Below are positions 19,873 through 53,516 of a DNA stretch of 64,000 nt, piece by piece. Position numbers and translations under genes: made by a program. The stretch's first letter is position 1; each line of letters begins with the position of its first letter. Under the pieces are notes generated by a model, which was given only the letters and a program-made list of their open reading frames with translations, was not told where the DNA came from and made no database searches. The DNA comes from an uncultured Acidobacteriaceae bacterium (GTDB lineage: Bacteria > Acidobacteriota > Terriglobia > Terriglobales > Acidobacteriaceae): assembly GCA_963772155.1 (NCBI GenBank), contig CAVYVX010000016.1, positions 8,469 to 72,468 on the forward strand, given 5' to 3'.

Positions 19873-20009
19873 AGCCGCTTAAGCATGTCAAGAGAAAAAT
19901 GCTATAATTATCACAAGAAGTTCGCCTTCCCCGTGCGGCCCGGAATTTTGCTCTTGTTCTATACTGCTTTTAGAGAGATAATTCGCGCCGAACGCATTGG
20001 GAGGAGTTT

Positions 20010-21007: not shown

Positions 21008-21060
21008 ACTGACCCACTACCCAAGGCAGGCATAATTGGCGACAAGATGATTGAGGATCT

Positions 21061-21582: not shown

Positions 21583-22130
21583 TGAGAAGCGTGGGATCGG
21601 CAGTATCGATCAGCCGAGTTTATCTATAACCACATCGCGTGTCCGCCTCTTCGCAGTCCTGCGGTTTTCACCGGGCTGGTATTCACAGCGGGAAACGATG
21701 TTTTCACCGGGTTGTTCTCTGCGGAATCGGCCCGTGCGTCCGCTGCGAAATAAGCGTGAGCGTCGCGTCAGAAAAAAATTCAATCTGAATTCCACAATCC
21801 CCCGTGAATGTGGCAAGGCCCTACGTCGGCCAAAAAACTGAGCGCAGCCCACCTAAAGCATTTTCACCAATAGTGTAAGACAAGGCATCTTCACGGTTGC
21901 TGTTGGCCTTGCCGTCGACAATCCCTCAGGGGCTAAAGCCCGCATTTCTGGCGGCCGTTAGCGGCACGCTAAAGCCGTGCCCTTCCCGATTCCGGCTATG
22001 GCTTACAGCAACTCTGAAAATGCTCTAGTGCCGGAGTCCGTAGAATACGGACACCATACGGACACATGGATTCAAGCAAAAAGCTCCGGAAAGAGGGGAA
22101 CGCATAAAACCATCATGGATACTGGATGAA

Positions 22131-22155: not shown

Positions 22156-22817
22156 TCCGCGCACAAGAGTAGTTTCATACACTTAGACCGCGGCAGATGG
22201 CATCTTTCGCGGCTAATGCCACGCAATTCCGTGTGAACGGCACGGAAACGGCACGGGTACGAACACGCTAATATAAAGCAGCATAGAGCGCAACGGCTCG
22301 CGGAATTGACCGCAAGGCGCGGATGGTATAGGCGCTTATTCCAGGCGGACCTCGCGACCGCACAAGCGGAGCGGTTCATGGCACGGCCTATGGAAATCAG
22401 CCGCGACACGGGAGGCACAAGCGGCGAGCGTGGGCAGGCGAGAGGGAGAACGGGATATTTTTGCGCTAATTTGTGGGGCTAGAGCGGGATTTGTGGTCTG
22501 CCAGTCAAATCGGCTCCCGGCCACTAAACTTGACGGGATTCTGCCAATTGCCAGTTACTCAACCGAGCCTTATTCCCATCCGGCTTTTCCCGCGCTCGTG
22601 ACCTCACATCCTATTATGATATTTCTCCTTGACGATAGTGATTCTTTGGCCTAGCGTGGCCGTGTCGACAGGAAACGAGTTTCCACCTTGGTTTCGCCGA
22701 GCACGCCGGAGCACCCTTTTGCACTGGGCCTCAACCGTCGCGCCCCCTCCCAGGCACCGTTTCCCAGTTCAAAAGGGCGATGTCGAATTCAATTCCATAT
22801 TGGTTAAGGGAAGAGTT

Positions 22818-28842: not shown

Positions 28843-29241
28843 TCACGGCCCACCTTGCAAGAGAACAACCGGCTGACTGGATTTCGAATAGAAATGGCAA
28901 TCGAAACAATCAGGATGCAGGTTCACGGCGTTGTGGCACTTGTCGCAGAACCGGGTCTTGTCCTTGTGGCACTGGCTGCAACTATTCAAGGTGACCTCGT
29001 TTCGGATCCCATCCCGCACCGCCTTGTCCCTGAGTTCGTAGAGAAGGACCTTGTGGTTCTGTCGCATCCAGCCGATGTCTCGGACACAGCGCTCGGAGGG
29101 GGAAGACGAAACCTCCAGGAACGGTTTTTGGGGAAATATGGAGAGCCATGCGAAACGCCCCGCGCTGTACGCGAATGGGGACAGAATGATGACACCTGCG
29201 AGGGCTGGAAAAAGCCATGCCGGAGGTCTATTCGGCTTCAT
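28843..29241 (-). CDS. membrane-anchored triheme cytochrome c, DsrJ-like
   Basis: ATG at 29239-29241 lies 5 nt after GGAGG. N-terminal anchor AWLFPALAGVIILSPF. Three CxxCH motifs (CSQCH, CDKCH, CFDCH) in the last 45 aa. Extra Cys in SERCVRD. Overlaps the qmoC stop by 14 nt. Confidence 0.6.
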   Translation of the reverse strand: MKPNRPPAWLFPALAGVIILSPFAYSAGRFAWLSIFPQKPFLEVSSSPSERCVRDIGWMRQNHKVLLYELRDKAVRDGIRNEVTLNSCSQCHKDKTRFCDKCHNAVNLHPDCFDCHFYSKSSQPVVLLQGGP

Positions 29242-30430
29242 GAAGACCTCCCAGCGGCTGCCGGCCAGTATGCTCTGCATACACCATCGCAGTGGCGCGG
29301 TAGATCATGTGGGCGAACTTGGAGTAGGGCAGCAGCACCAGCAGCGCGAACACAGTTGCGAGGTGGATGACGTACATCGCATAGCGGAGCGGGTCCACGC
29401 GCGCGTAGTGGAGAACCTCGCATCCGAATCCCGTAAGCACCGCAGCCGCCGCTAAGCCAAGAAACGTCCAATCGAACCAGGTTCCCTTACGGCCCGTGCC
29501 AGGCATTCGGTCGCGAACCATTCTGTCGCGGATCATGAGGGCGCACCCGATCAGGAGGGCGACACCCGCCAAATTGGCGAGGATCTTCCAGGGGCTCCAA
29601 AAGTTGAAGGGGTAAGCGAAACCATTCCCGAGCAGCGGGTTGAATCGAGCGGTCAGTACCCAGAGGTCCACGACGAGCAAGCCCAGAAAGCCAAAAAGAA
29701 CGAGCCGGTGGGAATTCATCCGCGACCGTTCAGCCGTGCACAGATCAAAGTCCTCATGCAGGATGATCCTGCGCAACGCCGATCGAACGCTCGCCATAAG
29801 CGATTGCGTTCGGCCCGTGCGTCCGGCCGCGCGGTCGCACGCCTTCAGGTCGCGCCAGAAGCGCATCACGCCCCAAGCCATTGCCACCGCATCCAGGAGC
29901 GCGAATGGCGCGAAAAATCCGATCAGGAGCCACTGCGGCAGTTGGCTCCAGTACGAAATGACGATGTGATTCGGGGTGGACGAAGCGGCGAAATACTTTT
30001 CCAATGGCGCGCGTATCCACACCATCAAACCCAGCAGTATGCACGGAATAAGCAGCAGGAGCGGCAGAGAACCAGGCCGGTTCACCCAATTGCCCAGCCA
30101 GCGCGGCACGCTGTAATGGACAATGGCTTCCCTCCGAATCGCCGCCATTACATCCCCTGGCCGCGCACCACGCGGGCAACGCAAGGAGCAGTCGTTGCAC
30201 TGATAGCAAAGCCAGACGTCTGGATCCGCGAGCAGCCGGTCTTTCAGGCCCCACTGCGCCCAAATCATTTCTTTTCGCGGAAAAGGCTTCTGGGCGCCGG
30301 AGAGTTCGCAAACCACCGAGCACATGGCGCATTGGAAACACTTCTTGAGGTCTTCGCCTCCGCTCGCCATGAGGCGATTGCGGAACTCTCTATCCGGCAG
30401 TATGCAAGCGGGAGTGGGCGTCGTCGTCAT
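29228..30430 (-). CDS. qmoC: quinone-interacting membrane-bound oxidoreductase subunit C
   Basis: HdrC-like CFQCAMCSVVCE and CYQCNDCSLRCP, followed by a multi-helix NarI/HdrE-like membrane domain. Position after qmoB. Confidence 0.85.
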   Translation of the reverse strand: MTTTPTPACILPDREFRNRLMASGGEDLKKCFQCAMCSVVCELSGAQKPFPRKEMIWAQWGLKDRLLADPDVWLCYQCNDCSLRCPRGARPGDVMAAIRREAIVHYSVPRWLGNWVNRPGSLPLLLLIPCILLGLMVWIRAPLEKYFAASSTPNHIVISYWSQLPQWLLIGFFAPFALLDAVAMAWGVMRFWRDLKACDRAAGRTGRTQSLMASVRSALRRIILHEDFDLCTAERSRMNSHRLVLFGFLGLLVVDLWVLTARFNPLLGNGFAYPFNFWSPWKILANLAGVALLIGCALMIRDRMVRDRMPGTGRKGTWFDWTFLGLAAAAVLTGFGCEVLHYARVDPLRYAMYVIHLATVFALLVLLPYSKFAHMIYRATAMVYAEHTGRQPLGGLHEAE

Positions 30431-30436
30431 CTTTTG

Positions 30437-32716
30437 TCAGCCCTTGAATGGGTTGAGACCCACGGCATCGATCTGCGCGGCAAACTCGTCGATGAGCGCC
30501 GGCAGCCGGTGGTAATCGGAAAGGGCGATTTCCTCGATGCGTACCCGCTGCTCCTCCAGAGCGAGTTGAAGAAGTTTCTGGCGTATGTTCTCACTGCGCG
30601 TACCCATCAACTCGCTGCCTCGTATGAAGTGGCACTGGTAGTCGTCGCCCGACTTGCATCCCAGCAGCAGGATGCCGTCGAATCCGTGCGCCAGCGCGTC
30701 GGCAATCCAGATCACATTGACCGCTCCCAAACACCGCACTGGAATCACGCGCACAAAAGGACTATAGCGAAGACGAGCGATGCCGGCGGCCTCCAGTGCG
30801 GGCAATGCGTCGTTTTCGCACGCCAGAATTAAGAGCCGCGGCTTCTCCTCGAATGCGTCGGGAATGTTCACCGCTTTGATCATCGAGGAGACGATGTCGA
30901 TCGAATAATCGCCAAATGAAATGATGCGCTCCGGGCAAGCGCCGAGACAGATGCCGCAGCGGCGGCAGCGCCCCGGATTCGGAAGCGGAGTGCCTTTGTC
31001 GTCCTCGTCGAGGCTGCCAAAGGGACACTCCTCAGTGCAGCGTTGGCACTGCGTGCAGCGCTGCATGTAAAAATCCGGGAAGGACAGATCGCCCCATCGC
31101 GGATGCAGGGTGACTCCCCGCGCGGTCAGCTCCACACATTGGATCGCCTTGAGCACCGCTCCCTCGGCGTCCGCGAGGCAGCCCTCTATATCGTTGGGCG
31201 CGCGCATACAGCCCGCCGCATAGATACCCGTCCGCCGCGTCTCGTAAGGGAAACAGATGAAGTGCGAATCGGGAAATCCGCCAGGCAACATCGGAAGGTC
31301 GGGACCCTGCCGATAGGTCAAGCGGAGCAGGTCCGTGCCCTCGTGCTGCCCCTGGTCCGCCACAAGCTGGCGTGCCCCGTCCAGTTGGGGCCCTGGTTGC
31401 CCCTTGTCAATGATGGCCCTGGCAATGATGGCCTTGGCATCGCGGACCTTCCGAATCGCTTCGCCATCGGCGGCAACCGGCACCATTCCCGTCGCCAGCA
31501 CCACGAGATCGGCCTCAACCTGGATTGAGGGTCCAAGCAGAGTGTTCTCGACGTTCACTTGCAGCCCCCGCGCGCTGCCGGCCTCAGCCGTAGTAACCGA
31601 GATCACATCCCCTTTCATCATGGATATTCCGGGGTCTTCTTGAGCGCGGCGATAGAAATCCTCGGACTGCCCCGGCGTGCGGATGTCTTTGTAGAAAATG
31701 TAGGCTTCAGCTTCCGGATCCAGCTCACGGGCCCACAGCGCCTGTTTCAGAGATACCCGACAACATACCGCGGAGCAGTAGGGAAGATGGGCTGCATCGC
31801 GCGATCCGGCACACTGCACGAATGCAATTCGCCGGGCTGGCCTGCCGTCGGATGGACGGCAAATCTGGCCCGTGGCCGCCAGACGTTCCATCTCGACATT
31901 GGTGATCACGTCGGGACTCCGGCCATAGCCAAGATGACCCAAGCGCGAGGCGTCATACGGCTTCCACCCGGTGGCCTGAACGATAGCTCCGGCTTGGGTA
32001 TGGACCGTCGAACCGTTGATAACCAACTCGACATCGAACTGACCGGGCTGGCCGCTGATGCTCTTGATCGCGGCAGATCGGTGAATCTGGATGCGGGGGT
32101 CTTTCTCCAACTGGAGAATCCAGTCGTTGAGATCGATGGCCTCCAGATCCCGGTACGGCGCGCTCTTGGGGAACTGTCGTTTGAAGGAGCGCAGCCATCC
32201 CCCGAGTTCGACCTCTTTCTCAACCAGCACGACCCGATAGCCTGCGCGGCTGGCCTCTCTGGCGGCGACCATCCCGCTGGGCCCACCGCCAACAACAAGG
32301 ATGGTACGGTCGGCGGCGATTTTGGCCGGTTCCCGAATCTCGGCCTTGAGCGCGCGCGCGATTCCCATGCGCAGGTTGTCCTCGGCAAGCATCTGCGTGT
32401 CTTCGTTGTGGGGTTCGTGGCTCCAAACCACCAACTCGCGCAAGTTCACCCTTTCCACGAAGCAAGAATCGAAGGAAAAAGTCTGGGAGTGAAAACGCCC
32501 TGAACAACCCGCAATGACCACCGATGCAAAACCGGACTGGATTCGCTCTTTGATCTGCGCCACTCCCTCATCGCCACAAAGAAACGAATGAGAGCGGCAA
32601 AGGCCCACGCAGCGCTCTTCAGCGGCAACTTTCTCGATGGCCGCCATGTCGAGCGAAGATCCGATGTCGCATCCGCCACAGATGAAGACCGCGACGTTTT
32701 TTTTCTCGTCAGCCAC
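30437..32716 (-). CDS. qmoB: quinone-interacting membrane-bound oxidoreductase subunit B (HdrA-like)
   Basis: MADEKKNVAVFICGGCDIG. FAD motif ILVVGGGPSGM. Ferredoxin motifs CTQCQRCTEECP and CRRCGICLGACP. MvhD-like C-terminus. Confidence 0.85.
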   Translation of the reverse strand: MADEKKNVAVFICGGCDIGSSLDMAAIEKVAAEERCVGLCRSHSFLCGDEGVAQIKERIQSGFASVVIAGCSGRFHSQTFSFDSCFVERVNLRELVVWSHEPHNEDTQMLAEDNLRMGIARALKAEIREPAKIAADRTILVVGGGPSGMVAAREASRAGYRVVLVEKEVELGGWLRSFKRQFPKSAPYRDLEAIDLNDWILQLEKDPRIQIHRSAAIKSISGQPGQFDVELVINGSTVHTQAGAIVQATGWKPYDASRLGHLGYGRSPDVITNVEMERLAATGQICRPSDGRPARRIAFVQCAGSRDAAHLPYCSAVCCRVSLKQALWARELDPEAEAYIFYKDIRTPGQSEDFYRRAQEDPGISMMKGDVISVTTAEAGSARGLQVNVENTLLGPSIQVEADLVVLATGMVPVAADGEAIRKVRDAKAIIARAIIDKGQPGPQLDGARQLVADQGQHEGTDLLRLTYRQGPDLPMLPGGFPDSHFICFPYETRRTGIYAAGCMRAPNDIEGCLADAEGAVLKAIQCVELTARGVTLHPRWGDLSFPDFYMQRCTQCQRCTEECPFGSLDEDDKGTPLPNPGRCRRCGICLGACPERIISFGDYSIDIVSSMIKAVNIPDAFEEKPRLLILACENDALPALEAAGIARLRYSPFVRVIPVRCLGAVNVIWIADALAHGFDGILLLGCKSGDDYQCHFIRGSELMGTRSENIRQKLLQLALEEQRVRIEEIALSDYHRLPALIDEFAAQIDAVGLNPFKG

Positions 32717-33995
32717 GATGAGGACTCACGCAATACTGGAGAGCTTTGAGCGCGGCGCTCGACGCATCGCGCACACAGGATGCGACGTCCATCGGACGCC
32801 GGGCACATCCCGCCGCAAAATGACCGGGCAGCGGCTGCGTACCCGACAAAAAACCATGGGGATCGCGGCTCAGCGCGCCCGACGGCAAAGCCGGATCTTT
32901 CCCAAGCGCCGGGACCATGCCCGCCGCCAGCACCACCAGACTTACTTTTTGGCGAATGCGGCTTTCGGCCAGCACGTCCTCAGCCTCGACCACCAAGTCG
33001 CCCGACGCTCCTTCCTCGGTTACCTTGGCCACTTTGCCTTTGATGAGATGAAGCTTGTCGTCCTTTTGGGATTCGGCAAGAAACAGCTCTTGCCTGCCCG
33101 GGGAGCGGAGGTCGATGTAGTAGACATAAATGTGGGCGTCCGGATATTGCGCCCGCACATACCTGGCTTGCTTGAGCGACGCCATGCAACAGACGCTGGA
33201 GCAGTGTTTGAGGTGGTTGTCGTCGCGCGACCCGGCGCACTGCACGAAGGCCACGCTTTCGATCTCCTTGCCATCGGAAGGACGGACGATCCGGCCTTTT
33301 GTAGGTCCAGATGGCGCCGCGAGTCGTTCCATCTGTACGTTGGAGACCATGTTGGCGTGGGCACCCAACCCCTCGACCACGCTCGCATCGAAGGGGTTCC
33401 ATCCCGTGGCCCATATTAGAGCCTGGACCTCAAACTCAAGGCGGAGCGCGGCCATCCGCAGGTTGATAGCATCGTAGGGGCAAGCCGCCACGCACTTGCC
33501 GCACTGCTCACCGACGCAGGTGGCGGGATCGATCGTGTATCGAAAGGGCCAGGCTAGGTCGCTGGGAAGGTATATGGCGCGGGTCGCTCCCATGCCGTAG
33601 TTGAATGCGTCGGAGCGCGATTCCGGACAGACCGCGACGCAGTCTCCGCAGGCCGTGCACCGTTCATTCACGAATCGTGGCTGCTGCTCGACCGTCACCC
33701 GATGGCAGCCGTCTTCGGTCCGCACCTCGGTCCGCACCTCTGCCACTTCCGACAAGGTAAGGCATCGGATGCGCGCGCTGCTGCGAATTCGCCGGAGGTT
33801 GATTTCGAGGCCGCACAACGGTGGGCAGAGTTTGGGAAAGTACTGATGCATCTGCGCCACGCGCCCGCCGAGATAAGCGCTGCGCTCGACGAGGATGACG
33901 TCGCACCCGGCCTCCGATGCCTCGATGGCGGCGGTGATGCCCGTGATCCCGCCGCCCACGACCATCACTGTGCCACGGCTGTCGCATCCTCTCAT
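32709..33995 (-). CDS. qmoA: quinone-interacting membrane-bound oxidoreductase subunit A (HdrA-like)
   Basis: VMVVGGGITGITAAIE. CTACGDCVAVCP and CGKCVAACP. An 8-nt overlap with qmoB. Confidence 0.85.
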   Translation of the reverse strand: MRGCDSRGTVMVVGGGITGITAAIEASEAGCDVILVERSAYLGGRVAQMHQYFPKLCPPLCGLEINLRRIRSSARIRCLTLSEVAEVRTEVRTEDGCHRVTVEQQPRFVNERCTACGDCVAVCPESRSDAFNYGMGATRAIYLPSDLAWPFRYTIDPATCVGEQCGKCVAACPYDAINLRMAALRLEFEVQALIWATGWNPFDASVVEGLGAHANMVSNVQMERLAAPSGPTKGRIVRPSDGKEIESVAFVQCAGSRDDNHLKHCSSVCCMASLKQARYVRAQYPDAHIYVYYIDLRSPGRQELFLAESQKDDKLHLIKGKVAKVTEEGASGDLVVEAEDVLAESRIRQKVSLVVLAAGMVPALGKDPALPSGALSRDPHGFLSGTQPLPGHFAAGCARRPMDVASCVRDASSAALKALQYCVSPHRG

Positions 33996-34090
33996 GGATT
34001 ACGTTCCCTTCATGGGGAGGGATCGAGCGCGTTGCGCTGGCTGCCCACTGCACGGACGATTGGATGAATCCGAAGCCGAAGCCGAATCCT

Positions 34091-36007
34091 TCATGGCGCG
34101 CTTTTCTCAGGCCGCTTGCCGACAATGTACTTCACCGGCCGCTTCATCATCTTCCACTGGCCCGTCGTTCGATCGAAGATGCAATTGCAGAAAGCCAGCC
34201 AGTCCTGGTTGTCGAGGGACGGCTTATCGGTGCGGAAATAGTATCCAGGCCACCGTGTCTCCTCGCGGAAGTACATGGACTGCACGTGGGCTTCGGCCTG
34301 GTGCAGGCGATGAACGCTCTCCCAGCAACGCATCAACTCGTGCGAGTTTTCGGCGGCCAGAAGCGCGGAGTCCGTCCTCAGAAATGCCAGAAGCTCCATG
34401 CCCTTTTCCAGGAGCTTGCCGCTGGTCTTGAACTGGCTCGACACGCCACCCGCATACTCGTCCATGATCTTCTGCAGGCGGTACATGAACTGTTTGGGAC
34501 GAAGATAGGCGGGGTTGACATCGGGGTCCGTGGTATTGGCTTGATTGGCCTGAAACACATCGAGGGGCTTGAGTATCTCGGACTTTAGAGTCTCGATCAA
34601 TGCGAGGTCAACCTGCGGGGCTGTGTTGTGGTCAGCGATGTAGGAAATGGCTCCTTTGGCCGCAATGCGCCCCTCGGTGAACGATCCCGAGGAGAACTTG
34701 TGACTCGATGCCCCGGACGCGTCGCCGGCGGCGAAGAGGCCAGCGACAGTGGTCATGTTGGGGTAACCCCAGCAGTACTCCGGCCTGGTCGCATCGTTCT
34801 GTAGGTCCGCGGGGCCGGAAACCCAGGCGCCGGAAGCGCCGGAGTGCGAACCGATGAAATAGGGCTCGCACGCCATGATCTCGGATGGTTTGACCTCGGG
34901 TTCGACATTGGTGGCGGCCCAGAGGATCGCTTGTGAGATGGTCATGTCGAGGAAGTCTTCCCACGCCTCCGACTCGAGTTCCTTGAGCTTCTTCTTGGCC
35001 GTTTTCTCGTCCGGCGACTCCTTTGCTATGCGCTGGATCGCGTCCGCCGTCTGCATGTAGATCGGCCCCTTGCCCTCCATCACGTCGAGCATCATGAGCC
35101 AGTTGCGCAGGTTCGCGGGCACGGGTTTGACGTGGCCGTAGGGTGCCCATTTGTCCAACTCGGCGGCGTTTTCGACCATGTAATCCTTGCCCGCGGCGTT
35201 GGTGGCGATGGCTTTGAAGAGCAGGAACCACGCACCCACCGGGCCGTAAGCGTCCTTGAAGCGCACCGGTATGAACCGGACTTCCTGGCAGGTCATCTCG
35301 GCCCCGGCGTAGATGGTGAAGAACGCGCTCGCTCCCGAGTTGAACGGCGGATACCAGGAGCGGCCGAACCCCTCTCCCGTGGAACGGGGCTTGAAGATAT
35401 GCACGGCGCCACCCATGGCCACCAGTGTGGCCTTGGCCTCGAACACGTACACGGTGTTCTCACGAGTGCTGAATCCGATTGCGCCCACGCACCGGTCGCC
35501 ATCCATCAACGGATGGGTCAGGAATACCCTCTCGAAGTACTGCCCTCCCGCTTCGGCCAGCGCGTTCTTGGCCGCTTCCGCCACGATGACCTTGTAGGAC
35601 TCGCCGTTGATCATCAACTGCCAGCGCCCCTCGTGCACGTACTTGCCATCCTTGTCCTTCCATATGGGAAGGCCCCACTTTTCAAAGAGGTGGACAGTGG
35701 AATCGACGTGGCGTGCGACGTTGGCGACGAGGTCCTCGCGTGTGATCCCCATCAAGTCGTTGCGGACGTAGTCGACATAGTCTTTCACGCTGTTGTTGCC
35801 GCTATTGAGGTCAACGTACATGTTGATGGCCGACAGCCCCATGGCGACGGCGCCGGACCGCTCCATCGCCGCCTTGTCCACCAACGTGACCTTCAGGCCG
35901 TGCTGGCGGGCCCAATAACTGGCTTCGACGGCCGCGCCGCAGGCAGCCATGCCCCCTCCGCAGATGAGTAGGTCCGTTTGCACGACTACGGTCTTGAAAT
36001 CAGCCAT
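34091..36007 (-). CDS. aprA: adenylylsulfate (APS) reductase alpha subunit
   Basis: FAD motif DLLICGGGMAACGAAVEA. Size and position directly after aprB. The ATG at 36005-36007 (MADFKT) lies 9 nt after AGGAG. Confidence 0.9.
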   Translation of the reverse strand: MADFKTVVVQTDLLICGGGMAACGAAVEASYWARQHGLKVTLVDKAAMERSGAVAMGLSAINMYVDLNSGNNSVKDYVDYVRNDLMGITREDLVANVARHVDSTVHLFEKWGLPIWKDKDGKYVHEGRWQLMINGESYKVIVAEAAKNALAEAGGQYFERVFLTHPLMDGDRCVGAIGFSTRENTVYVFEAKATLVAMGGAVHIFKPRSTGEGFGRSWYPPFNSGASAFFTIYAGAEMTCQEVRFIPVRFKDAYGPVGAWFLLFKAIATNAAGKDYMVENAAELDKWAPYGHVKPVPANLRNWLMMLDVMEGKGPIYMQTADAIQRIAKESPDEKTAKKKLKELESEAWEDFLDMTISQAILWAATNVEPEVKPSEIMACEPYFIGSHSGASGAWVSGPADLQNDATRPEYCWGYPNMTTVAGLFAAGDASGASSHKFSSGSFTEGRIAAKGAISYIADHNTAPQVDLALIETLKSEILKPLDVFQANQANTTDPDVNPAYLRPKQFMYRLQKIMDEYAGGVSSQFKTSGKLLEKGMELLAFLRTDSALLAAENSHELMRCWESVHRLHQAEAHVQSMYFREETRWPGYYFRTDKPSLDNQDWLAFCNCIFDRTTGQWKMMKRPVKYIVGKRPEKSAP

Positions 36008-36046
36008 GTTCATGTTCTCCTTAGGACTTTCCGAATCCTGAAACAC

Positions 36047-37318: not shown

Positions 37319-39991
37319 ATGGAAACCGTCATAGGGACGGAAATTCGCGATTTCAGGCTGCGCGGCAACTACGTTAATCAGCGCAGCCTCCTGTCCGGGA
37401 TAGACCCGCATTCTCGCAGGATGGAAGACATAGTTCCGGACAGCCCGGAATACTCCCCGGCCGTGGTCGAGTTCGAACTTCACGATGGTCAAACCGGCAG
37501 CATCGTGGTCAGTGAAGTCGATATTCCTCTACTATGCGACGATGATTTTGAAAAAGCGAAAGCGCACCTTGGGCTGCTTCTGAATGCCCGTCAAGGTGAC
37601 GCTGAGGCTGCGAAGAAGCTTGCTTCGCAGGCGCAAGAACAACGCTTGGCAGCGGAGCGAATTCAACCATCCGAAAGCGGTTTTGTCGTTCCCTCAACGA
37701 GCTGTGAGACCCACTCGGAGCAGGACATAAGTCAAAAGGCATTCGTCCTCCTGAAACTAAGCCAACTTGGCTATCCTGTGCCGGACTTCGTCGTACTTAC
37801 GTCCCAGACTTATGCCGAGCGTGCCCAGCGCTTCGAGGAGCACATCGCGGACGCCATCAAGCAACTCGAAATCCTCACCATGCGGAGACTGGGAGACTGC
37901 GAGAGGCCGCTCGTCTTCGCGATTCGCTGCGCCACGCCCCACTATATTCCCGGAATCCTGGACACTTATCTCAACGTCGGCGTGACCGAAAGTACGTTGC
38001 CCAGTTTGGAGAAGATGTACGGCCCGGTGGCCGCGCGCAAGATGTTTCTGAATAACCTCAGAAACCTGTGCCAGGCCCTCTACCATGACAAGCATGTTGC
38101 GATTATCAAGGCCGTCAAGTCCGACCTGCGTCCCGATAAGGTTGAGCGTCTCGTGGAACGGCTGTCGGAGGTCGTCAGGAAAACCGACCGGAGATTAATT
38201 GAGGATGCCTTTTTTCAGGCCACCTTTTTTGCCAGGCAGGCCTACGAGCATTTTGAAAAGAACCTGGAACTCGTGCTCACACTGTGCCGAGGCGCGGAAC
38301 ATTATCCCAGTCTCATTTTGCAGAAAATGATTTGCACGGTCCGGCACGAAAATGCCTATGCCGGAGTCGTCTCCAGCCGCAATACGCAAACGGGTTTGGG
38401 CATAGAACTGCAAACCACCCGCAATATTTTCGGCGAAGAGATGATGACGGGAACAGCCGAGATCCAAACGACCTCTTTCGAGGACCGCGAGGCAATCAAG
38501 GACGCCTTTCCCGCCGTCTATCATTTTGTCCCACGCCTCAGGGACCTGGAGCGGGAGTTTGAGTCCCCTGTAACCATCGAGTTCGCGGTCGAAGCCACGG
38601 AAAGACAGCAATTGTTCGCGCTCCTGCAACTGAATCAGACGGGAATGGCGGGGCGAGCGGCAATTACTTCGGTGGTGGACATGCACAAGTCGGGGACAAT
38701 ATCGCGGCAACGCGTGACCGAGCTCATCCGGCCCTACCACCTCAGGCAGCTAACCAGCGACACCATCGACCAGGACGCTTTCCTTGTGCTTAAGAGCTTC
38801 TGCTCGGGATTCGCGGTTTTGCCCAGATCGGCAGTCTCGGCGCGCGTTTACTTCACGGGTGACCGCGCTTTGAAAGCCAAGATCCGGGGCGAGACGGTAT
38901 GTCTTTGCAAGAAGACGTTTTCGCCCACCGACACTGTGGTGATGCGCGAGATGGATGCAATCATAAGCCTGACCTCGGCCGCGGTGCACGTAGTCACTAT
39001 CTGCCAGAGCTTGGGCGTCCCGGCCCTGCTCAGCCTTGAGAAAAACGGCGCAACCTTGCTGCCTGACGGGCGCCTGGTTAATTCCTTCGGGATGGAAATC
39101 AGGGAGGGGGATTGGATCACGGTTTCCTCCAGGCGAAGAACTCTTTACGAAGGGAAGGCGAAGTTCAAGCCCGCCAGACTCTTGCGCTACATGAGGGGAG
39201 AGCCGGTCGAGCTGGATGAGGAAGAGCGGAAAGTCTTTGCCGCTATGGCCTATTCATACCGCTACTACAAGCAGTTGACCCGGGGCCTCGAGGTCGATCA
39301 GATCTCCACCCTCAGCGAAGTCGTCAGGCTGGTTGACTTCGAGCTGCGCGGCGAATCGGAAGAAGCCAGGCAACTGGTCAACGGCTGGTTCGACGAACGC
39401 GAAGCGTTGTACATGGAAGAGGTCCTGAAGAGCGACATCGGCGACCACCTCGGGCAAAGCAACGTTTTCGAGATGCTCACCTTGGACCGGAAGATCAGGT
39501 TCTTCAAGCAGGCCCTGGCCAAGTGCTCTGGTCAACGCATCTCCGGCTACGAGGCGGGCGCTTTCATGCTGGGCCGCTTCTTGTGCTTGCGCTATCCCGC
39601 CGCTTTCTGGAAGTGCTTTACCCCATCCGAGATCGGGCTGCTCGTGAATGAGTGGGTCCTCTTCGAGAAATACATGCAGGTCTTGCAGAACGTAGGCGAG
39701 AGAAAAATTCTACTGGCGCGAAAGCAGATCCTCAAGCGTGGGCTCGAACAGCTTTCGCTTAACCCCGGCAACTTGCAACCACTCATCACGCTTAAACTGA
39801 GCGGCGTCAAGCTGGAGGAAGCGAAAGAGTCTTTGCCCGAATGGAGCGATCCCCAGTCCAAGCGGGTGCTCGAACTTCTGCAACAGCCGTACCGCGTTTT
39901 TTACGATTTCAACGCGGCATGGTCCGTCAGCCAACTGGAGAAGATCTGCCGCGAAGAAGGCCTCCCCTTACCGGGCCCCGATGCCTGCTAG
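37319..39991 (+). CDS. PPDK-like dikinase: ATP-grasp (PPDK_N) plus phosphohistidine swivel domain, no PEP/pyruvate TIM barrel, novel N- and C-terminal regions
   Basis: [32 protein letters not shown] aligns with PPDK [48 protein letters not shown] aligns with SHAAVVARGMG (His at 38987-38989). No RTEHMF, GSNDLTQ or CGE motifs after residue 618. Confidence 0.7.
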   Translation: [890 protein letters not shown]

Positions 39992-42523
39992 AGTGGCCGG
40001 CCCCGGCGCCGTGGGCCGCGACTTCAAGCCGTATAGATAATCGCGGTCAATGATCGATTCCATCTCCCGCAGCACTTCGGGAAGTTCCTTTCCGTCCCTG
40101 GCGGCAATCAGGCGGCCCAGCGCGAGCGACAGGGAAAGCACCGCATTCATGCCGAGATTCGCCTTTCTCTGCATGATCTGGATCTTCTCCTCCACGCTCG
40201 CGTTGGGAGCGATCTTGCCGCGTTTCATGGCGAGATCCAGTTCCAGCAGCAAAAGCTCGCGGTCGATGTCGACGAGCGTGCCGAGCGCCGAGATCTTCTG
40301 TCCCAGAAAACGGGGGGCGAGCACTTCGGTCACGTTGGCCACCGCGTTGAGGCACCCTTTCCCGTTGTAACGCTTTGCCCTCATCCAGAGGTCGCCCAGT
40401 TCGCGATTTTTCCTGGTGACGTTCTCGGCCTTCACGTTGGCGGCAAAGCGGTAGGTCTTTTCTTTCTCCTTGAAGACGAAATAGTCCGGGAATTTCCGCG
40501 TGAGCGGATTGGCCTCGATAATGCTGTCGACCAAGTGGATGGCCTCATCCGTCCCCGCCGAGGTGCCCAGGGGCGTGGCCGCGGAGAACTTCATCCCGTT
40601 GTCGAGCGTCACGACCACTCCCACGGTTGGGATGCCCGCGTTCGTTGGCTCCTCGTGAGCGGAAATGTCGGCGATCATGAGATCGGGATCGAGCTTCCGC
40701 GTGATCTTGATCCCCTTCTTCGCCATTTCCATCAATTCGACTATTCTTCCGTACTTGACCAGCCTTTCCGTGTTGGCCCCGCCTCCACATTTCAGGCCGA
40801 GCGCGCCCACCGCGAAACTGATGTCGGCTTCCATTACTTCGTTGGGAGATTTGGAGCGGTGGGATACCACCAAAGCCAGCCCCAACTGCTTCGCCATGCG
40901 AGTGGCCAGCAGGGTCTCACTCAGCGTGCCGATCTGATTGGCTTTAATCAGGGCAGTATTGATGAGCCCTTGCTCGGCGCACCTTTGGATCGTGGTGTCC
41001 TTCGTCGTCACCAAATCGTCCCCGATGATGAGGATCTCCTGGTCGAGGGCCTTCATCAGCTTCTTCCATCCTTCGTAGTCGTCCTCGGCGAAGGGGTCTT
41101 CCAACGAGACGATGGGATATTTCTTTACCCAACTAATGTATAGGTCGACCATTTCGTCCGTGCTCAGGACCTTGGGGTCCTCAGCTCGCCAGAAGAGGTA
41201 CTGGCCGATCGACTCCTTCTCGCCGGTCTTCTCCCGGTAAGCACTGCTGAGTTCACTGGCGGCCGGATCAAGCGCGATGCAAACATCCTGATCGGGGACA
41301 AAGCCACATTCCTCGATGGCCTGCACGGCCACCCTTAATGACCTCTCTTCGGGGAGTAAATCGCCCTTCTCCTTGGCATAGGAGGCGACGATTCCTCCTT
41401 CCAGGCCTACGCCCACAAAATTGAGCCCTTCCGTATCCTGAATTATCTGGATTGCCCGGCTTTGCAGAAGATTGGTGACTCGCTGCGCCTCAATGTAGTC
41501 TTTGGCGGTGAGGGGAAGGAACATCAACTCCTGGAAGCTCAGGTTGCCGCCCATCTCCTCGGTGTGACGCCCGCCCATGATGCAGTTTCTGAACTCCCAT
41601 GGGGCAAACACAATCTTTCCGTCCGCCAGTTCCAGCTCCTGGAGCCGGTGCAGCCTGAGCTTGCGCCGCAGCTCGGCTGGCTTGACCGAGCGCGCCTCTT
41701 GCGTCTCGCCGACTGGCTCCGTGGCCCGCACTTCCGCCACCCTGGCTGCCGCCTCTCTTTGCCTCTCCTGGAACGCCTTGTATTTCCCTGCGTCCGAGAG
41801 CAGGAAGTCGAAGAGGGCAACCACCCCAATGGTGAACAGGGCCCTTCCCACGTACACCGCTGCCGGCAACGCCGTGTACAGGCCCAGCATGATCAGAACG
41901 ATTCCCGGCAAGAATGTGAACTGACTAAGTATCTTGCTCGCTCTTGGCCCCGCCGCCGACACAGCCAAATTCTGCGTCTTCACCGCCGGGTGGAAGCTCC
42001 CCGCCTCCTTATGTACTCCCGGGAAAGTTCCGTACGGGATTTTCACGAACATCTCGAGATACCAGAGCCACCTGCCAAGCGGCCCTTGCTTCAGTTTTTC
42101 CTCCGCCGGCGCCGCCAGCTCCGGTCTCAGATTGTTGGTCTTGACCGCCGTCAGATAGTGCCCCATCTCGTGGATGGCAATATTGCAATGCCATGCCATA
42201 TACCACATCGCAGAGGAGATCACGACTTCAATGCTGAGAAACATCTGCCGCATGACGTCGAATTTCGATGCCACGTGGAGAGAAATGCTTAGTAAGGAGG
42301 TCAGGAAGGCGGCGTGGAAGGAAACCAGCTTGTGGTTGGCGATGATCCAGCCACGATCCAGGCGCGCAGTGTCGCTCGCCTCACGGGTCCACGCGAAAAT
42401 ACGCTCGGGGAGTCCGCGCAACGCCCGAACAATCCCAGCCGGGAGCTGTCTCCGGCGGCTGTTCTGATGTGGATGAGCGGATTGAACGACGGGGTCTTTC
42501 GACGGCCCGGAGTAATTCGGCAT
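39968..42523 (-). CDS. membrane HExxH (M50-like) domain fused to a circularly permuted enolase (C-terminal barrel first, N-terminal domain last)
   Basis: ATG at 42521-42523 lies 5 nt after GGAGA. The track start at 42649 is inside a MITE terminus. HEMGH at 42158-42172. Barrel motifs FQELMF, GLEGG, ALDPAASE, YPIVSLEDP, IIGDDL, LIKANQIGT, SHRS and LKCGG come before the N-domain motifs GIPTVGVVV, PLGTSAGTDEA, RYNGKGCLNAV and ANLGMNAVLSLSLA. Confidence 0.75.
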   Translation of the reverse strand: MPNYSGPSKDPVVQSAHPHQNSRRRQLPAGIVRALRGLPERIFAWTREASDTARLDRGWIIANHKLVSFHAAFLTSLLSISLHVASKFDVMRQMFLSIEVVISSAMWYMAWHCNIAIHEMGHYLTAVKTNNLRPELAAPAEEKLKQGPLGRWLWYLEMFVKIPYGTFPGVHKEAGSFHPAVKTQNLAVSAAGPRASKILSQFTFLPGIVLIMLGLYTALPAAVYVGRALFTIGVVALFDFLLSDAGKYKAFQERQREAAARVAEVRATEPVGETQEARSVKPAELRRKLRLHRLQELELADGKIVFAPWEFRNCIMGGRHTEEMGGNLSFQELMFLPLTAKDYIEAQRVTNLLQSRAIQIIQDTEGLNFVGVGLEGGIVASYAKEKGDLLPEERSLRVAVQAIEECGFVPDQDVCIALDPAASELSSAYREKTGEKESIGQYLFWRAEDPKVLSTDEMVDLYISWVKKYPIVSLEDPFAEDDYEGWKKLMKALDQEILIIGDDLVTTKDTTIQRCAEQGLINTALIKANQIGTLSETLLATRMAKQLGLALVVSHRSKSPNEVMEADISFAVGALGLKCGGGANTERLVKYGRIVELMEMAKKGIKITRKLDPDLMIADISAHEEPTNAGIPTVGVVVTLDNGMKFSAATPLGTSAGTDEAIHLVDSIIEANPLTRKFPDYFVFKEKEKTYRFAANVKAENVTRKNRELGDLWMRAKRYNGKGCLNAVANVTEVLAPRFLGQKISALGTLVDIDRELLLLELDLAMKRGKIAPNASVEEKIQIMQRKANLGMNAVLSLSLALGRLIAARDGKELPEVLREMESIIDRDYLYGLKSRPTAPGPATLAGIGAR

Positions 42524-42639
42524 GGCGTTCTCCAGTGACTGGGCGACAGCGCTGCGATTCGCCTGCAGTCCGCAAACTCGCTGCTCTGATTCGAGGACCA
42601 TTCCCAAATCGGCTTGGGATCGGTGTGCATCCCCTAGAA

Positions 42640-42765
42640 CTGGTTTCATAAATTAGGTTTTGGGCAGGGCACGACTTCAGCCGTGCCGCTCAGGGCCGCA
42701 ATTGATGTGGGCTTTAGCCCCTGAGGGCCTGGCTCCCCGTTCCGAAAAAACGTTTATGAAACCAG
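42640..42765. mobile_element. MITE-like element, same family as 4571-4748 (opposite orientation)
   Basis: 13-bp perfect termini CTGGTTTCATAAA (42640-42652) and TTTATGAAACCAG (42753-42765). The interior is homologous to the reverse complement of 4571-4748. Confidence 0.7.
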
Positions 42766-50324: not shown

Positions 50325-52466
50325 TTAAGAGGCGTTAGGTGGCGCGACGCTCCAAGCTCTTCCGTCCAGATGGCCGGGCAGTGGCAAGCCAAATAATTTC
50401 AAGACCGTGGGAGCAACGTCGACGATGGCGGGCTTCTCTTCCGCGATCTTGCGATTGCAGAAAAGAACACCCGGAACCAACCGCGGATCGATGCAATGAT
50501 CGCCACTCCATGCTTTCAGATTGTCCTCGAAGACCACGCTCGTGACCTTGCCCATCACCGAATCCCACGACGCGCGGAACCCGTCGCCATATCCGACGAT
50601 CAGGTCGGGAGCGTTGTCCACATAAGGTCCGGCATAGACCGAGTCACGATTAAAGACACCCGTGATTCCCACGCGGCCCGAGGCAGGGTCCACCAATCCG
50701 TCGAGTTTGCGTAGCAATTCCTCTTTCAACGCTTCCGCTTCGACGCCAGAGTCGACAATGCCCTGACGCTCACGTCCTTTGAGATTCAAGTAGAGGCCGT
50801 TCAAACCCATGGTATACGCACGCGTCCGTGACCAGTCCACATCTTCAAACCAATCGCCACTCTCACTCTTTCCGGATTTCAGTGCGAGATATCCATTCTG
50901 ATGCAGCCAGGCATTCAGATTCACGCAGCGTGCGAACGACTTGAAACCGTGGTCGGAGACGACCATCAACAAGGTCTTGTCATCCATCCGCTGCATGACG
51001 CGGCCGACCAGTTCGTCCATGCGCGTGTACAAATCCTCAATCACGCTTGGCCGCTGGCTGAGCGGTACTTCGCGGGCCGCAGGATGGTCCTCCTCCAGGT
51101 AGCGCCAGAACATGTGCTGCACGCGATCCGTGGTATCGAAAACGCAGACGCACAGGCCCTGTGGCGTTTTCTCTAAAGCGTCGAACAACATGCGCTCTCG
51201 ATCCTCATGATTGGCGTAACACTGGGCCAGGAAGGCATCGTCATCCAGCACTTTCTCATTTAGAGCCCACGTGTCTTCAGCCAACCCCAACGTGGCATAC
51301 GGCCCCAATAGTTTGGCGAGATAGACCGAGTAAGTCAGCGGGTGCGAAATCGGAAGATCGGGCTTGCCAGGATCGATATTCACCGGCGTGACATAGACTT
51401 CGACCTCAGGCGATATTTCCTTTAGATAAAAGCGGCAAATTCCATGCGCGCTGAAACCAATGCCGGCTTTGAACTTGACCGGAATCCAGTCCGAGTAGTC
51501 CCCTACCTTCAACGTGAATTTGTGTGAATCTACGATGAAGCGCGCCAGGTTCCCGCTGTCGTCGGGATGTATCTCGAAATGCACTCGCAATTCGCCGCCC
51601 GAGCCGGGCAGCAGCGGATCTTCCGGGCCGGGCACGAAGGACCGGCACATGCCGTCCCCGCGCTCGACGGGAACTCGAACTCCGCCCTCGCGAAACTTGT
51701 CGCCACTTGGACGGGTTGTGCACAGGCAGAAAGTCCCCTGGCTTCCTTTCAGGTCAGGCACACACATGCCCGAAAGCAGCACGCCAGAGAACTTCTCTGG
51801 CGGGAAGGTCACGGGAACGCGAATCACGGAACAGAAAATCCCCGCCTCGCCCAGCCAGTGCCAGAACGGCGTGCCGTAGCGCATGCGTTTGATCCTGGCT
51901 CCGCCCAGCGGAATGGTGTATTTGCCGATCTTCAAGCTACGCTTGGGGCCTTTAATTTCTGACGAAGAGAGGTAAGGAAGGTAGTTGCTGAGGTCCCGCG
52001 CAAGGAAATCGTAGATGTTGTGCTTGCCGGGATTTACCCCGGTCATGAACGTCGACCACGCCACCGGAGAAATGGGTGGGAATGTGGTTCGCAATTTCCG
52101 GAATGTTGCCTGCTCGCGCAACTTCGCCAGATTCGGGAGCCTGCCTGCGGCGATGAAGCGCTCGGTAAGTTCCGGGTCCATCCCGTCAAAGCCGAGAATG
52201 ACGGCGCGCTTGATCTCGGCTTTGCCGTAAGCCTTGCGTTTTCGCAATAGCCGGAACAGTTGCCGGAACGGCCACACTAAGAAGGCGTAGATCGAATAGA
52301 GGAATGCAACAAAAAGCGTCCAGAATGAAGAAAGTACTGCGAACCCGGCACCCGGCCCCGCATACGCGTGACAGCAAGGCGGAAACAACAGAATAATGCC
52401 AAAAACCACGCAACCGGCGAGGACCCGCCGGCGTTCGCTAAACAGACTGGCCCCGCTCCAACTCAT
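50325..52466 (-). CDS. alkaline-phosphatase-superfamily enzyme, type I phosphodiesterase/nucleotide pyrophosphatase (NPP) type, N-terminal TM helices
   Basis: VILGFDGMDPEL..FPPISPVAWSTFMTGVNPGKHNIYDF..VVSDHGF..WSGDHC. Paralog of 53517-55511. Confidence 0.65.
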   Translation of the reverse strand: MSWSGASLFSERRRVLAGCVVFGIILLFPPCCHAYAGPGAGFAVLSSFWTLFVAFLYSIYAFLVWPFRQLFRLLRKRKAYGKAEIKRAVILGFDGMDPELTERFIAAGRLPNLAKLREQATFRKLRTTFPPISPVAWSTFMTGVNPGKHNIYDFLARDLSNYLPYLSSSEIKGPKRSLKIGKYTIPLGGARIKRMRYGTPFWHWLGEAGIFCSVIRVPVTFPPEKFSGVLLSGMCVPDLKGSQGTFCLCTTRPSGDKFREGGVRVPVERGDGMCRSFVPGPEDPLLPGSGGELRVHFEIHPDDSGNLARFIVDSHKFTLKVGDYSDWIPVKFKAGIGFSAHGICRFYLKEISPEVEVYVTPVNIDPGKPDLPISHPLTYSVYLAKLLGPYATLGLAEDTWALNEKVLDDDAFLAQCYANHEDRERMLFDALEKTPQGLCVCVFDTTDRVQHMFWRYLEEDHPAAREVPLSQRPSVIEDLYTRMDELVGRVMQRMDDKTLLMVVSDHGFKSFARCVNLNAWLHQNGYLALKSGKSESGDWFEDVDWSRTRAYTMGLNGLYLNLKGRERQGIVDSGVEAEALKEELLRKLDGLVDPASGRVGITGVFNRDSVYAGPYVDNAPDLIVGYGDGFRASWDSVMGKVTSVVFEDNLKAWSGDHCIDPRLVPGVLFCNRKIAEEKPAIVDVAPTVLKLFGLPLPGHLDGRAWSVAPPNAS

Positions 52467-53251
52467 ATCTCAATTCCGAGAATACTCTTGAAAACGAAGC
52501 CTGTCAGCAAAGACAACACGAAGAACAACCAGATCCAGTTCCATGCAAAGCCGGCGAAAGCGATGTCGCGTGGGGGATACTGCACCTCGATTGCGTCGAT
52601 CATGCCATTCTCCGGCAGTGCGGGCTCCGCAGAGAGGAACATGCGCTTCCAAAACTGCTTTCGCAACCGAACGGGAGATAAGCGTGGCATGCCCAAGCCA
52701 ACCACTACATTTTTTGAGAAAATCTGACCGGAGGCTTCAATGGCGACCGGGTATTTTCCATTCCTGGAAGCCACAACTCTCCAGACCAGTTCGTTTTCTG
52801 AAGGCACGTGGACTGCCGGTGCAGTGGCCGCCAATCCCTCCGGCAACCGGAGCGTAATATCATTTAGCGTCTGCGGATCGGCCACACGCGCTTTCACCAG
52901 GAACGACTGCCCGGTTCGGATCGGCAACGATCCCAAGTAGCGATCGATCTGCACAATCAGAAACACCAGTGGAATAATCACACACAATAAAGGCTTGAAC
53001 GCCAAGCGCAGATAATCGCCGGTCGCCAGCAGGATGCGCCCGTACGAACGCAGCACAACGGGGATTTGGTCCTGAAAGAGTCGAAGCGCCAGCAGGTGTG
53101 CTTTCAGGCGGTCCTTCGCCAAGTGAATCGCGCGCTGGTCGGAAGTGTAGCGAAACACGACCACCATCGCCAGCCCGATCGCCAGGGAAATCAGGCACAC
53201 GACTACAGCCGGTAAGTTGATTGTCAGAAAGCTCATACGAGAATGCAGCAA
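52463..53251 (-). CDS. membrane protein of unknown function
   Basis: Hydrophobic helices at both ends. The stop overlaps the next start as ATGA (52463-52466). Confidence 0.5.
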   Translation of the reverse strand: MLHSRMSFLTINLPAVVVCLISLAIGLAMVVVFRYTSDQRAIHLAKDRLKAHLLALRLFQDQIPVVLRSYGRILLATGDYLRLAFKPLLCVIIPLVFLIVQIDRYLGSLPIRTGQSFLVKARVADPQTLNDITLRLPEGLAATAPAVHVPSENELVWRVVASRNGKYPVAIEASGQIFSKNVVVGLGMPRLSPVRLRKQFWKRMFLSAEPALPENGMIDAIEVQYPPRDIAFAGFAWNWIWLFFVLSLLTGFVFKSILGIEI

Positions 53252-53279
53252 AGCGAACCTGCGTTCGTACCCCGGTCAG

Positions 53280-53492
53280 CTACTCAATATACCCAAGTCC
53301 CTGGAGCCGCTTCTTAATGATTTCCTTCGAGGTTTTGCCACCTTCGCCAGGAGGCAGCACCTTGTCGACTTCCTTTTCGAGAGCATGCAGCACAAATTCG
53401 TCCACTGACGCGTAACCGCACGCTTCCGAACATTGCTTCACTTTGTCGAGCAATTCGCCTTCGATCTTTACCTTGTGAGAGCCGAACATCAA
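53280..53492 (-). CDS. small ribbon-helix-helix-like protein
   Basis: KVKIEGELLDKVKQCSEACGYASVDEFVLHALEKEV fits a strand-helix-helix pattern. Confidence 0.4.
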   Translation of the reverse strand: MMFGSHKVKIEGELLDKVKQCSEACGYASVDEFVLHALEKEVDKVLPPGEGGKTSKEIIKKRLQGLGYIE

Positions 53493-53516
53493 TCACCTCA
53501 ATCGCGGGCCAAACGA

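Follow-up and report, generated by a model that had tools for sequence, protein, structure and literature searches.

We analyzed a 64,000-nucleotide stretch of DNA from an uncultured Acidobacteriaceae bacterium (contig CAVYVX010000016.1, positions 8,469 to 72,468 of the forward strand; the window) and identified on its minus strand a gene for a predicted membrane-anchored, circularly permuted enolase (the fusion protein). The 3' end of this gene overlaps that of a gene for a dikinase resembling pyruvate phosphate dikinase (PPDK; the partner). Enolase is among the most conserved and best-studied enzymes, and we know of no natural circular permutant or integral-membrane form of it that has been described. 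Full-text literature searches for a permuted, membrane-bound or M50-fused enolase gave nothing relevant, in agreement with the novelty claimed in the original prediction, which a model had made from the sequence alone. NCBIfam likewise has no specific model for a permuted membrane enolase, and there is a real chance that the two-gene system could be categorically new. Our preferred reading, to which we assign a probability of roughly 0.55, is that the fusion protein is an active, membrane-tethered enolase paralogue acting on 2-phosphoglycerate (2-PG) and phosphoenolpyruvate (PEP) together with a dikinase that would transfer phosphoryl groups through a histidine.

The fusion gene occupies an uninterrupted open reading frame (ORF) at 39968..42649 on the minus strand, with 893 codons counted from a Met at 42649; residue numbers are counted from this Met unless stated otherwise. 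The true start is probably M43 at nucleotide 42523, since a GGAG lies 6 nucleotides upstream of this ATG and the homologues are 805-851 residues long and cover 88-95% of the 893-residue ORF. The range 39968-42523 proposed originally matches this start. The structure was modelled with AlphaFold2 (AF2) from a 24-sequence alignment, and local confidence is given as the predicted local distance difference test (pLDDT). The features of the gene, with transmembrane helices abbreviated TM, are as follows.

39968..42523, minus strand: probable coding sequence of the fusion protein, 851 amino acids from M43.
42356..42523, minus strand: N-terminal tail, residues 43-98, predicted to be cytoplasmic, basic (K+R 9 against D+E 5) and disordered (pLDDT mostly <50).
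41792..42355, minus strand: four-helix membrane domain, residues 99-286 (hydropathy; AF2 helices with pLDDT 84-93; weak PF02163 match).
42158..42172, minus strand: HEMGH in the cytoplasmic half of TM2; H160 and H164 are putative zinc ligands and E161 a putative catalytic Glu.
41945..41956, minus strand: AAGP (A232-P235) at the cytoplasmic start of TM3, aligned with the AGP of an M50 protein.
41786..41797, minus strand: SDAG, residues 285-288, where TM4 ends on the cytoplasmic side; the family consensus is ADPG, and D286 is a candidate third metal ligand.
41639..41785, minus strand: helical cytoplasmic linker, residues 289-337 (AF2 helices 247-268 and 282-291 in 851-residue numbering).
40715..41638, minus strand: enolase TIM barrel, residues 338-645 (Pfam, PDB, Foldseek and residue conservation).
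40838..40864, minus strand: SHRSKSPNE, residues 596-604; SHRS is kept, and the family signature KSPND takes the place of the canonical GETED after it.
40679..40714, minus strand: junction of 12 residues, 646-657, between the old barrel C-terminus and the old capping-domain N-terminus (PDB alignment, AF2).
40034..40678, minus strand: capping domain, now C-terminal, residues 658-872 (Enolase_N and PDB alignments; pLDDT ~87-96).
40376..40525, minus strand: family-specific insertion of ~50 residues in the capping domain, residues 709-758 (gap in the PDB alignment between enolase residues 53 and 57).

Canonical enolases have their N-terminal domain ahead of the barrel. Along the fusion protein the Pfam matches ran in the order Peptidase_M50 (residues 157-299), Enolase_C (350-641) and Enolase_N (from 659). 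The match to Enolase_C (PF00113) had an E-value of 2.4e-57 and 194.9 bits against a cut-off of 21.5, and that to Enolase_N (PF03952) had an E-value of 3.1e-14 and 53.7 bits against a cut-off of 35. A phmmer search against the PDB enolases (E 1e-50) aligned enolase residues ~135-411 with residues 341-641 of the query, and enolase residues 4-53, 57-112 and 101-126 with residues 659-708, 759-819 and 826-851, respectively. Since both searches placed the barrel ahead of the capping domain, the fusion protein is, on these alignments, a circularly permuted enolase, as had been proposed. The phmmer alignment also confirmed the ~50-residue capping-domain insertion noted at the outset and placed it at 709-758; it was found throughout the family. 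The match to the NCBIfam equivalog TIGR01060 was split into three stretches and reached 243.9 bits, short of the 300 bits required. Given the wrong domain order, the sub-equivalog score and the lack of SHRSGETED, the gene should not be annotated as a housekeeping enolase.

The AF2 model had a mean pLDDT of 84.8 and a predicted template-modelling score (pTM) of 0.81, and both the barrel and the capping domain were modelled with confidence. Hydropathy and AF2 agreed on four helices, TM1 (99-121), TM2 (140-170, with HEMGH), TM3 (228-259) and TM4 (262-285), which bears out the hydrophobic helical HExxH domain originally seen upstream of the barrel. A cytoplasmic loop (171-227) holds two helices and a beta-hairpin, and two linker helices follow TM4 before the eight-stranded barrel at 338-645. 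Foldseek against the PDB returned only enolases (E 2e-18, root-mean-square deviation (rmsd) ~2.2 A over ~296-300 columns, 30-34% identity in the barrel); its alignment is sequential, so the permuted capping domain lies outside the superposition. Basic residues were concentrated in the tail, the long loop and the post-TM4 linker, a positive-inside pattern from which the topology is predicted to be N-in. In the resulting model the enolase part and all three membrane motifs are on the cytoplasmic side. The tail itself (43-98) was poorly conserved among homologues.

All the active-site residues of enolase were aligned in the fusion protein (E. coli numbering): E168, E209, D246, E290, D317, K342, H370, R371, S372, K393 and the loop Ser. 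The motifs quoted in the original prediction were all where it had placed them, namely FQELMF (372-377), GLEGG (415-419), ALDPAASE (459-466), SLEDP (515-519), IIGDDL (541-546), LIKANQIGT (567-575), LKCGG (619-623) and, in the capping domain, PLGTSAGTDEA (693-703), which carries the Mg-II Ser. Among ~30 representatives with 30-90% identity, the catalytic set (QE, EGG, D, E, DD, KxNQIG, SHRS, KxGG and the loop Ser) was near-invariant, and the three metal ligands, D246, E290 and D317, were invariant or nearly so across the family. The capping-loop Ser, which lies within G(T/V)SAG, was near-invariant in the same representatives and was kept in 120/120 close homologues. The residues that bind the 2-PG carboxylate, the two Mg ions and the phosphate were all unchanged; the retention of catalytic and metal residues claimed for the window protein extends to its family. 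Near the substrate two differences were family-wide, the ~50-residue insertion in the lid domain and a post-SHRS loop that reads KSPND instead of GETED, while canonical enolases neighbouring the module (the membrane domain with its permuted enolase) read SHRSGET.D. The change from SHRSGETED to SHRSKSPNE singled out originally is therefore a feature of the whole family, in the form SHRSKSPND.

Some relatives (P0154, P0166, P0170 and P0173) carry two tandem membrane and permuted-enolase modules in one protein. In P0154, P0166 and P0170 the first enolase was degenerate and the second intact, a pairing of the kind expected of an obligate dimer fused into one chain, at which it may hint. The first module of P0154 and of P0170 has also lost the Glu of HExxH.

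A search of a 5.8-billion-cluster protein collection with the fusion protein gave 635 matches, and the best 120 of these all had 79-88% identity over 85-97% of the query. These 120 were from Terriglobia/Acidobacteriota in JGI, ENA, NCBI and Logan assemblies and were annotated as 'enolase' or 'hypothetical protein'. HExxH, the Asp motif and the enolase motifs were present in 119/119 scorable close homologues, and AGP in 118. Among 1.84 billion representatives clustered at 50% identity, an exhaustive HMMER search found ~30 further full-length relatives at 30-64% identity, all of which had the order membrane domain, barrel, capping domain and the same junction. When one genome per GTDB species was scanned, 364 genomes were found to encode a relative; 80 loci were retrieved from these. 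Identity in the retrieved loci was 77-89% in Terriglobia, 70-73% in metagenome-assembled genomes (MAGs) of 'Deltaproteobacteria', Binatia and Elusimicrobiota, 56-60% in Planctomycetota/Phycisphaerae and 48-50% in WOR-3/Stahlbacteria. Judged by these matches, members of the family occur in hundreds of species from at least six bacterial phyla, most of them in uncultured lineages of soil and sediment.

In a neighbour-joining tree of the barrel, the 31 family members formed one clade against 28 canonical enolases (bootstrap 99/100), and median barrel identity was 53% within the family and 32% to canonical enolases. The permutation and the fusion therefore arose once and are old. No clear soluble member without TM helices was found among the representatives; the candidates for such a form begin at the barrel (residue 1-4 of the protein), look N-terminally truncated and were set aside. 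A canonical eno (~430 residues, with GASTG..EA near the N-terminus and SHRSGET.D) lay directly downstream of the module in loci of Binatia, Stahlbacteria and WOR-3 (L055, L074, L077, L084 and L085) and 4.6 kb downstream in a Terriglobales MAG (L026), while none was present within the 64-kb window. The gene content of these genomes identifies the module as an enolase paralogue and not a replacement for canonical eno. The same Terriglobales MAG (JBHGAZ01) holds two copies of the module (L026 and L027), one with an adjacent partner and the other without a partner but with the canonical eno downstream.

The gene at the 3' end of the fusion gene was resolved into the following features.

37319..39991, plus strand: the partner, a PPDK-like dikinase of 890 amino acids (TIGR01828, PDB PPDK, Foldseek, adjacency).
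37724..38818, plus strand: ATP-grasp nucleotide-binding domain, residues 136-500 (PDB PPDK, Foldseek).
38819..39178, plus strand: phosphohistidine swivel domain, residues 501-620 (PEP-utilizers match, E 0.0067), with His557 at nucleotides 38987-38989.
39179..39988, plus strand: C-terminal domain, residues 621-890, strongly conserved and all-helical in the AF2 model, which replaces the PEP/pyruvate TIM barrel of PPDK.

The partner matched positions 18-514 of the 865-position TIGR01828 profile (E 1.5e-33), with scores far short of the PPDK equivalog cut-offs, and aligned with residues 24-514 of Clostridium symbiosum PPDK, i.e. the ATP-grasp and phosphohistidine domains, with an E-value of 1.4e-21. 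Its Pfam PPDK_N score was sub-threshold (22.5 vs 27). H557 was aligned with the catalytic His of the PPDK motif GGMTSH, and in 19 partner sequences H557, K140 and R203 were invariant, the latter two being the counterparts of PPDK K22 and R92. The AF2 model had a pLDDT of 66 overall, with low confidence in the His domain and a C-terminal domain made of helices only (60-90). In Foldseek the ATP-grasp part alone gave matches, the best to PPDK (rmsd 4.4-4.8 A over ~375 columns, E 2e-15), followed by rifampin phosphotransferase (RPH) and PEP synthase (PpsA). Residues beyond 620 had no Pfam or PDB match, PF02896 included, and the C-terminal domain contains many invariant polar residues. A degenerate PEP-utilizers_C barrel was considered for this region, which hhalign does reach, but was rejected on the all-helical AF2 model and the lack of Pfam, PDB or Foldseek support. 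By its alignments, then, the partner is a His-swivel dikinase without the PPDK PEP/pyruvate barrel and belongs to the PPDK family by two of three domains.

The fusion and partner genes are convergent and their 3' ends overlap by 24 nucleotides (window 39968-39991). Tail-to-tail overlap or near-abutment recurs in many Terriglobia loci (e.g. L006, L018, L020, L022, L024 and L056), and such an arrangement leaves no room for a terminator between the two genes. The partner was present in 50/56 retrieved loci of the Terriglobia/Elusimicrobiota/Binatia clade, mostly immediately downstream and convergent, and four of the six loci that lacked it had essentially no flank. Neighbours other than the partner varied among the loci of this clade. 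On two metagenome contigs the partner was co-directional, 110 nucleotides downstream of the module. In distant relatives the two are fused, with the dikinase N-terminal in P0140 and C-terminal in P0132, P0146 and P0138, and in P0160 the permuted enolase is joined to a complete canonical PPDK (PEP-utilizers_C, PF02896, E 7e-73). The fusion module is genetically coupled to a PPDK-type phosphohistidine enzyme, through adjacency and through gene fusion. In one Acidobacteriota MAG (L016 13435-14964) the partner is interrupted after residue 599 by a ~1.5-kb insertion that encodes a 323-residue integrase-core (IS3-like) transposase.

The membrane domain has conserved residues of its own. In A5, an alignment of this domain alone (18 sequences, 29-52% identical to the window protein), the invariant positions were a single Arg, the H, E, G and H of HExGH, A-G-P, the ADPG Asp and three Gly/Pro residues in the loop of the beta-hairpin. 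HEMGH was invariant in A5 and near-invariant in diverse representatives; A138, G140 and P141 of AAGP (A5 numbering) were invariant in A5, and the Asp of SDAG/ADPG was invariant both in A5 (D192) and in A1 (D244). The domain had been described as reminiscent of M50 site-2 proteases (S2Ps). The match of PF02163 (Peptidase_M50) to residues 157-299 had an E-value of 0.0033 and 17.2 bits, with 17.2-18.8 bits recorded overall against a gathering score of 27.2, and the profile matched 7/18 diverse members at E<=1 (best E 7e-6) and never above the gathering score. Aligned by hhalign with a genuine M50-CBS protein from L016, the domain was colinear in TM1, HExxH, the beta-loop and AGP (E 8e-4, probability 25%), while a membrane-domain profile found no matches among PDB sequences, solved S2Ps included. 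At the end of TM4, LDxxxADPG has the invariant Asp (D286) and lacks the Asn and Pro of NxxPxxxLDG. The resemblance thus stands as a set of weak, colinear matches, but with sub-threshold scores and NxxPxxxLDG reduced to its Asp, sequence evidence for homology to M50 is weak. The Glu of HExxH is not a metal ligand in zincins, and its conservation therefore favours catalysis over a purely structural metal site; the putative zinc site probably acts as a hydrolase. In one representative, P0153, all three membrane motifs (HExxH, AGP and the Asp) are lost and the enolase is intact, so enolase function would not strictly depend on the zinc site.

In our preferred reading, the N-in four-helix domain, M50-derived or M50-like, would keep a His-Glu-x-x-His...Asp site in the cytoplasmic leaflet, and the cytoplasmic part would function at the membrane's inner face as an enolase-type dehydratase, probably dimeric, with 2-PG/PEP or a very close analogue as its substrate. 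The module would exchange PEP or phosphoryl groups with the partner dikinase, and the pair would form a membrane-bound, PEP-centred phosphotransfer unit (2-PG <-> PEP <-> His~P <-> ATP). The membrane zinc site may serve a second hydrolytic or gating activity or may be a retained anchor. Several observations weigh against this proposal. The KSPND loop is unlike that of every canonical enolase and comes with the lid insertion, so that the substrate could differ. The near-invariant Glu of HExxH suggests that the membrane domain is itself catalytic, an activity for which the proposal does not account. No partner was detected within 10 kb in the Planctomycetota/WOR-3 loci by tblastn and domain hidden Markov models, and in most loci the partner is convergent and not co-transcribed. 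The HD and possibly kinase-like domains of giant relatives, described below, hint at a more specialised phospho-metabolite pathway. A bolder form of the proposal seems to us quite improbable. The partner has no PEP barrel and the fusion protein has a PEP-binding barrel, a complementarity that makes direct docking of the His domain an attractive possibility: the permuted barrel would stand in for the missing PEP/pyruvate barrel, with the swivel His domain docking at the enolase site and the phosphate-side loop, remodelled from GETED to KSPND, at the docking site. The result would be a hybrid 'enolase-dikinase' at the membrane. The phosphoryl group of 2-PG/PEP would then be moved directly to or from ATP, and this transfer might couple to the intramembrane zinc site, e.g. 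by gating proteolysis or transport according to carbon and energy status.

Other explanations must also be weighed. An artefact, whether from chimeric assembly, a frameshifted pseudogene or mis-joining of an enolase, can be ruled out. The exact fusion protein, with either start, was absent from a 15-billion-protein collection in which the exact sequence of its neighbour (P0271, NCBI and ENA) was present, and this absence might mean that the source record lacks the gene call or flags a pseudogene. The frame, however, is unbroken over 893 codons, the partner is conserved alongside, and the AF2 model is confident. The same domain order and junction occur in >119 independent homologues and 364 species genomes, and the junction recurs in hundreds of independent assemblies. 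The junction near 40700, which the original prediction had flagged for scrutiny, is accordingly not chimeric, since 119/119 close homologues, as well as relatives in at least six phyla, have the same architecture. By analogy with the CBS domain of SpoIVFB and the PDZ domains of RseP, the fusion protein might instead be a site-2-type intramembrane metalloprotease whose enolase part is a metabolite-sensing or gating domain that couples proteolysis to 2-PG/PEP levels. This would agree with the (near-)invariant HExxH with its Glu, AGP and the Asp ending the last TM helix, all in the cytoplasmic leaflet as in S2Ps, and with the weak colinear similarity to the Pfam M50 model and to a genuine M50 protein. 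In WOR-3 the module moreover has a second membrane metalloprotease, M48, as a conserved neighbour, and one is also encoded near a giant relative. We nevertheless consider it unlikely. Enzyme-derived sensors usually lose their catalytic residues, whereas here the complete enolase set is conserved across phyla, and P0153 has kept its enolase intact without any of the three membrane motifs. In addition, M50 membership is sub-threshold, the module loci have no conserved nearby gene for an anti-sigma factor, a sigma factor or another typical S2P substrate, and the PPDK-like linkage would be left unexplained.

It is equally doubtful that the module is an enolase-superfamily dehydratase or lyase with a switched substrate that serves an envelope or secondary pathway and not glycolysis. 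Its substrate could be a 2-phosphoglycerate-like head group that is phosphodiester-linked or membrane-associated, or a different alpha-proton acid made by the dikinase partner, and the membrane domain would present or process a lipid- or peptide-linked substrate. The SHRSKSPND change lies beside the phosphate-binding Arg/Ser and, like the 50-residue lid insertion, is family-wide, and the membrane domain is obligatory. The partner lacks the PEP/pyruvate barrel and is similar to rifampin phosphotransferase and other 'X, water dikinases', giant relatives repeatedly contain HD phosphohydrolase and possibly kinase-like domains, and glycosyltransferase or flippase genes are neighbours in Planctomycetota and WOR-3. 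On the other hand, the carboxylate-, two-Mg- and phosphate-binding residues for 2-PG are unchanged, one relative (P0160) carries a complete canonical PPDK as a fusion, in several phyla canonical eno lies right beside the module, and no lipid or glycan biosynthesis gene is conserved across clades. The original suggestion that the substrate may not be 2-PG was drawn from the altered loop, which proves to be family-wide, but it did not take in the most informative context: the conserved PPDK-like partner and the fusions argue for chemistry still centred on 2-PG/PEP and against an unrelated substrate. An anti-phage defence system was also considered and rejected, as neither the fusion protein nor the partner matched any PADLOC defence model and inheritance looks vertical.

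In many relatives the module is part of a giant bacterial protein (1,000-6,000 residues), and these proteins have extra domains in common, in variable order. An HD phosphohydrolase domain recurs beside the module in P0123, P0125, P0130, P0136, P0157 and P0160 (Pfam HD 23.9 bits in P0125, e.g. residues 256-519). A common domain of ~200 residues in P0125 (40-256), P0163, P0127, P0135 and P0139 looks kinase-like by eye and has no Pfam match, and the cut end of P0131 gave a sub-threshold match to a cupin-type glucose-6-phosphate isomerase. Among the neighbouring genes, one for a Peptidase_M48 with a C-terminal zinc ribbon adjoins the module in 11 WOR-3/Stahlbacteria loci (e.g. L071 4336-6042), and an M48 gene also lies near the giant P0123 (L005 1006-1866). 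Glycosyltransferase or flippase genes neighbour the module in Planctomycetota and WOR-3. Elsewhere in the window, positions 18001-22000 have a G+C content of 0.50-0.52 against ~0.59-0.62 in the rest and may be a foreign island. A cluster at 29228-36046 on the minus strand resembles the Fe-S/flavoprotein modules of heterodisulfide reductase/MvhD and comprises a Fer4 dicluster protein, a 759-residue Pyr_redox_2 and FlpD fusion, a FAD_oxidored and Fer4 protein, and a FAD_binding_2 protein. A 1805-residue protein with a pro-kumamolisin activation domain and a Big_3_5 domain is encoded at 22629-28046 on the plus strand, and two adjacent genes of the type I phosphodiesterase/nucleotide pyrophosphatase family lie at 50325-55511 on the minus strand.

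If the proposed coupling is true, the pair would place a node of lower glycolysis/gluconeogenesis at the membrane or would represent a new membrane process driven by PEP, and the family would be a natural test case for domain permutation enabling new fusions. The automatic annotation of such proteins as 'enolase' or 'hypothetical' would then also be corrected, which matters for metabolic reconstructions of Acidobacteriota, Planctomycetota and candidate phyla. Direct docking of the dikinase on the permuted barrel, were it true, would amount to a new kind of glycolytic-membrane machine.

Compared with canonical enolase (EC 4.2.1.11), the fusion protein has both domains, a barrel that is 30-34% identical to and superposes at ~2.2 A on solved enolases, and every catalytic, Mg-binding and phosphate-binding residue, and it is probably dimeric. 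It differs in its reversed domain order, the added four-helix membrane domain and 50-residue lid insertion, SHRSKSPND in place of SHRSGETED and a TIGR01060 score below the cut-off (243.9 vs 300), and its family is a separate clade that coexists with a normal eno gene. With the M50 proteases RseP, SpoIVFB and mjS2P it shares HExxH inside a TM helix, an AGP that opens the next core helix, a beta-hairpin between these two helices and an Asp at the end of the following helix, with all motifs near the cytoplasmic face, and a large appended soluble domain comparable to the PDZ or CBS domains of known S2Ps. Unlike these proteases, however, it is sub-threshold in Pfam and has no sequence match to solved S2Ps, NxxPxxxLDG is reduced to LDxxxADPG without the Asn and Pro, and the appended domain is a complete enzyme with no evident substrate or anti-sigma partner. 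The partner shares with PPDK, PEP synthase and rifampin phosphotransferase an ATP-grasp domain and a central mobile domain with a His at the catalytic position. It differs from PPDK in having an extra 135-residue N-terminal domain, a conserved all-helical domain of ~270 residues in place of the PF02896 TIM barrel, and an obligatory linkage to the permuted membrane enolase.

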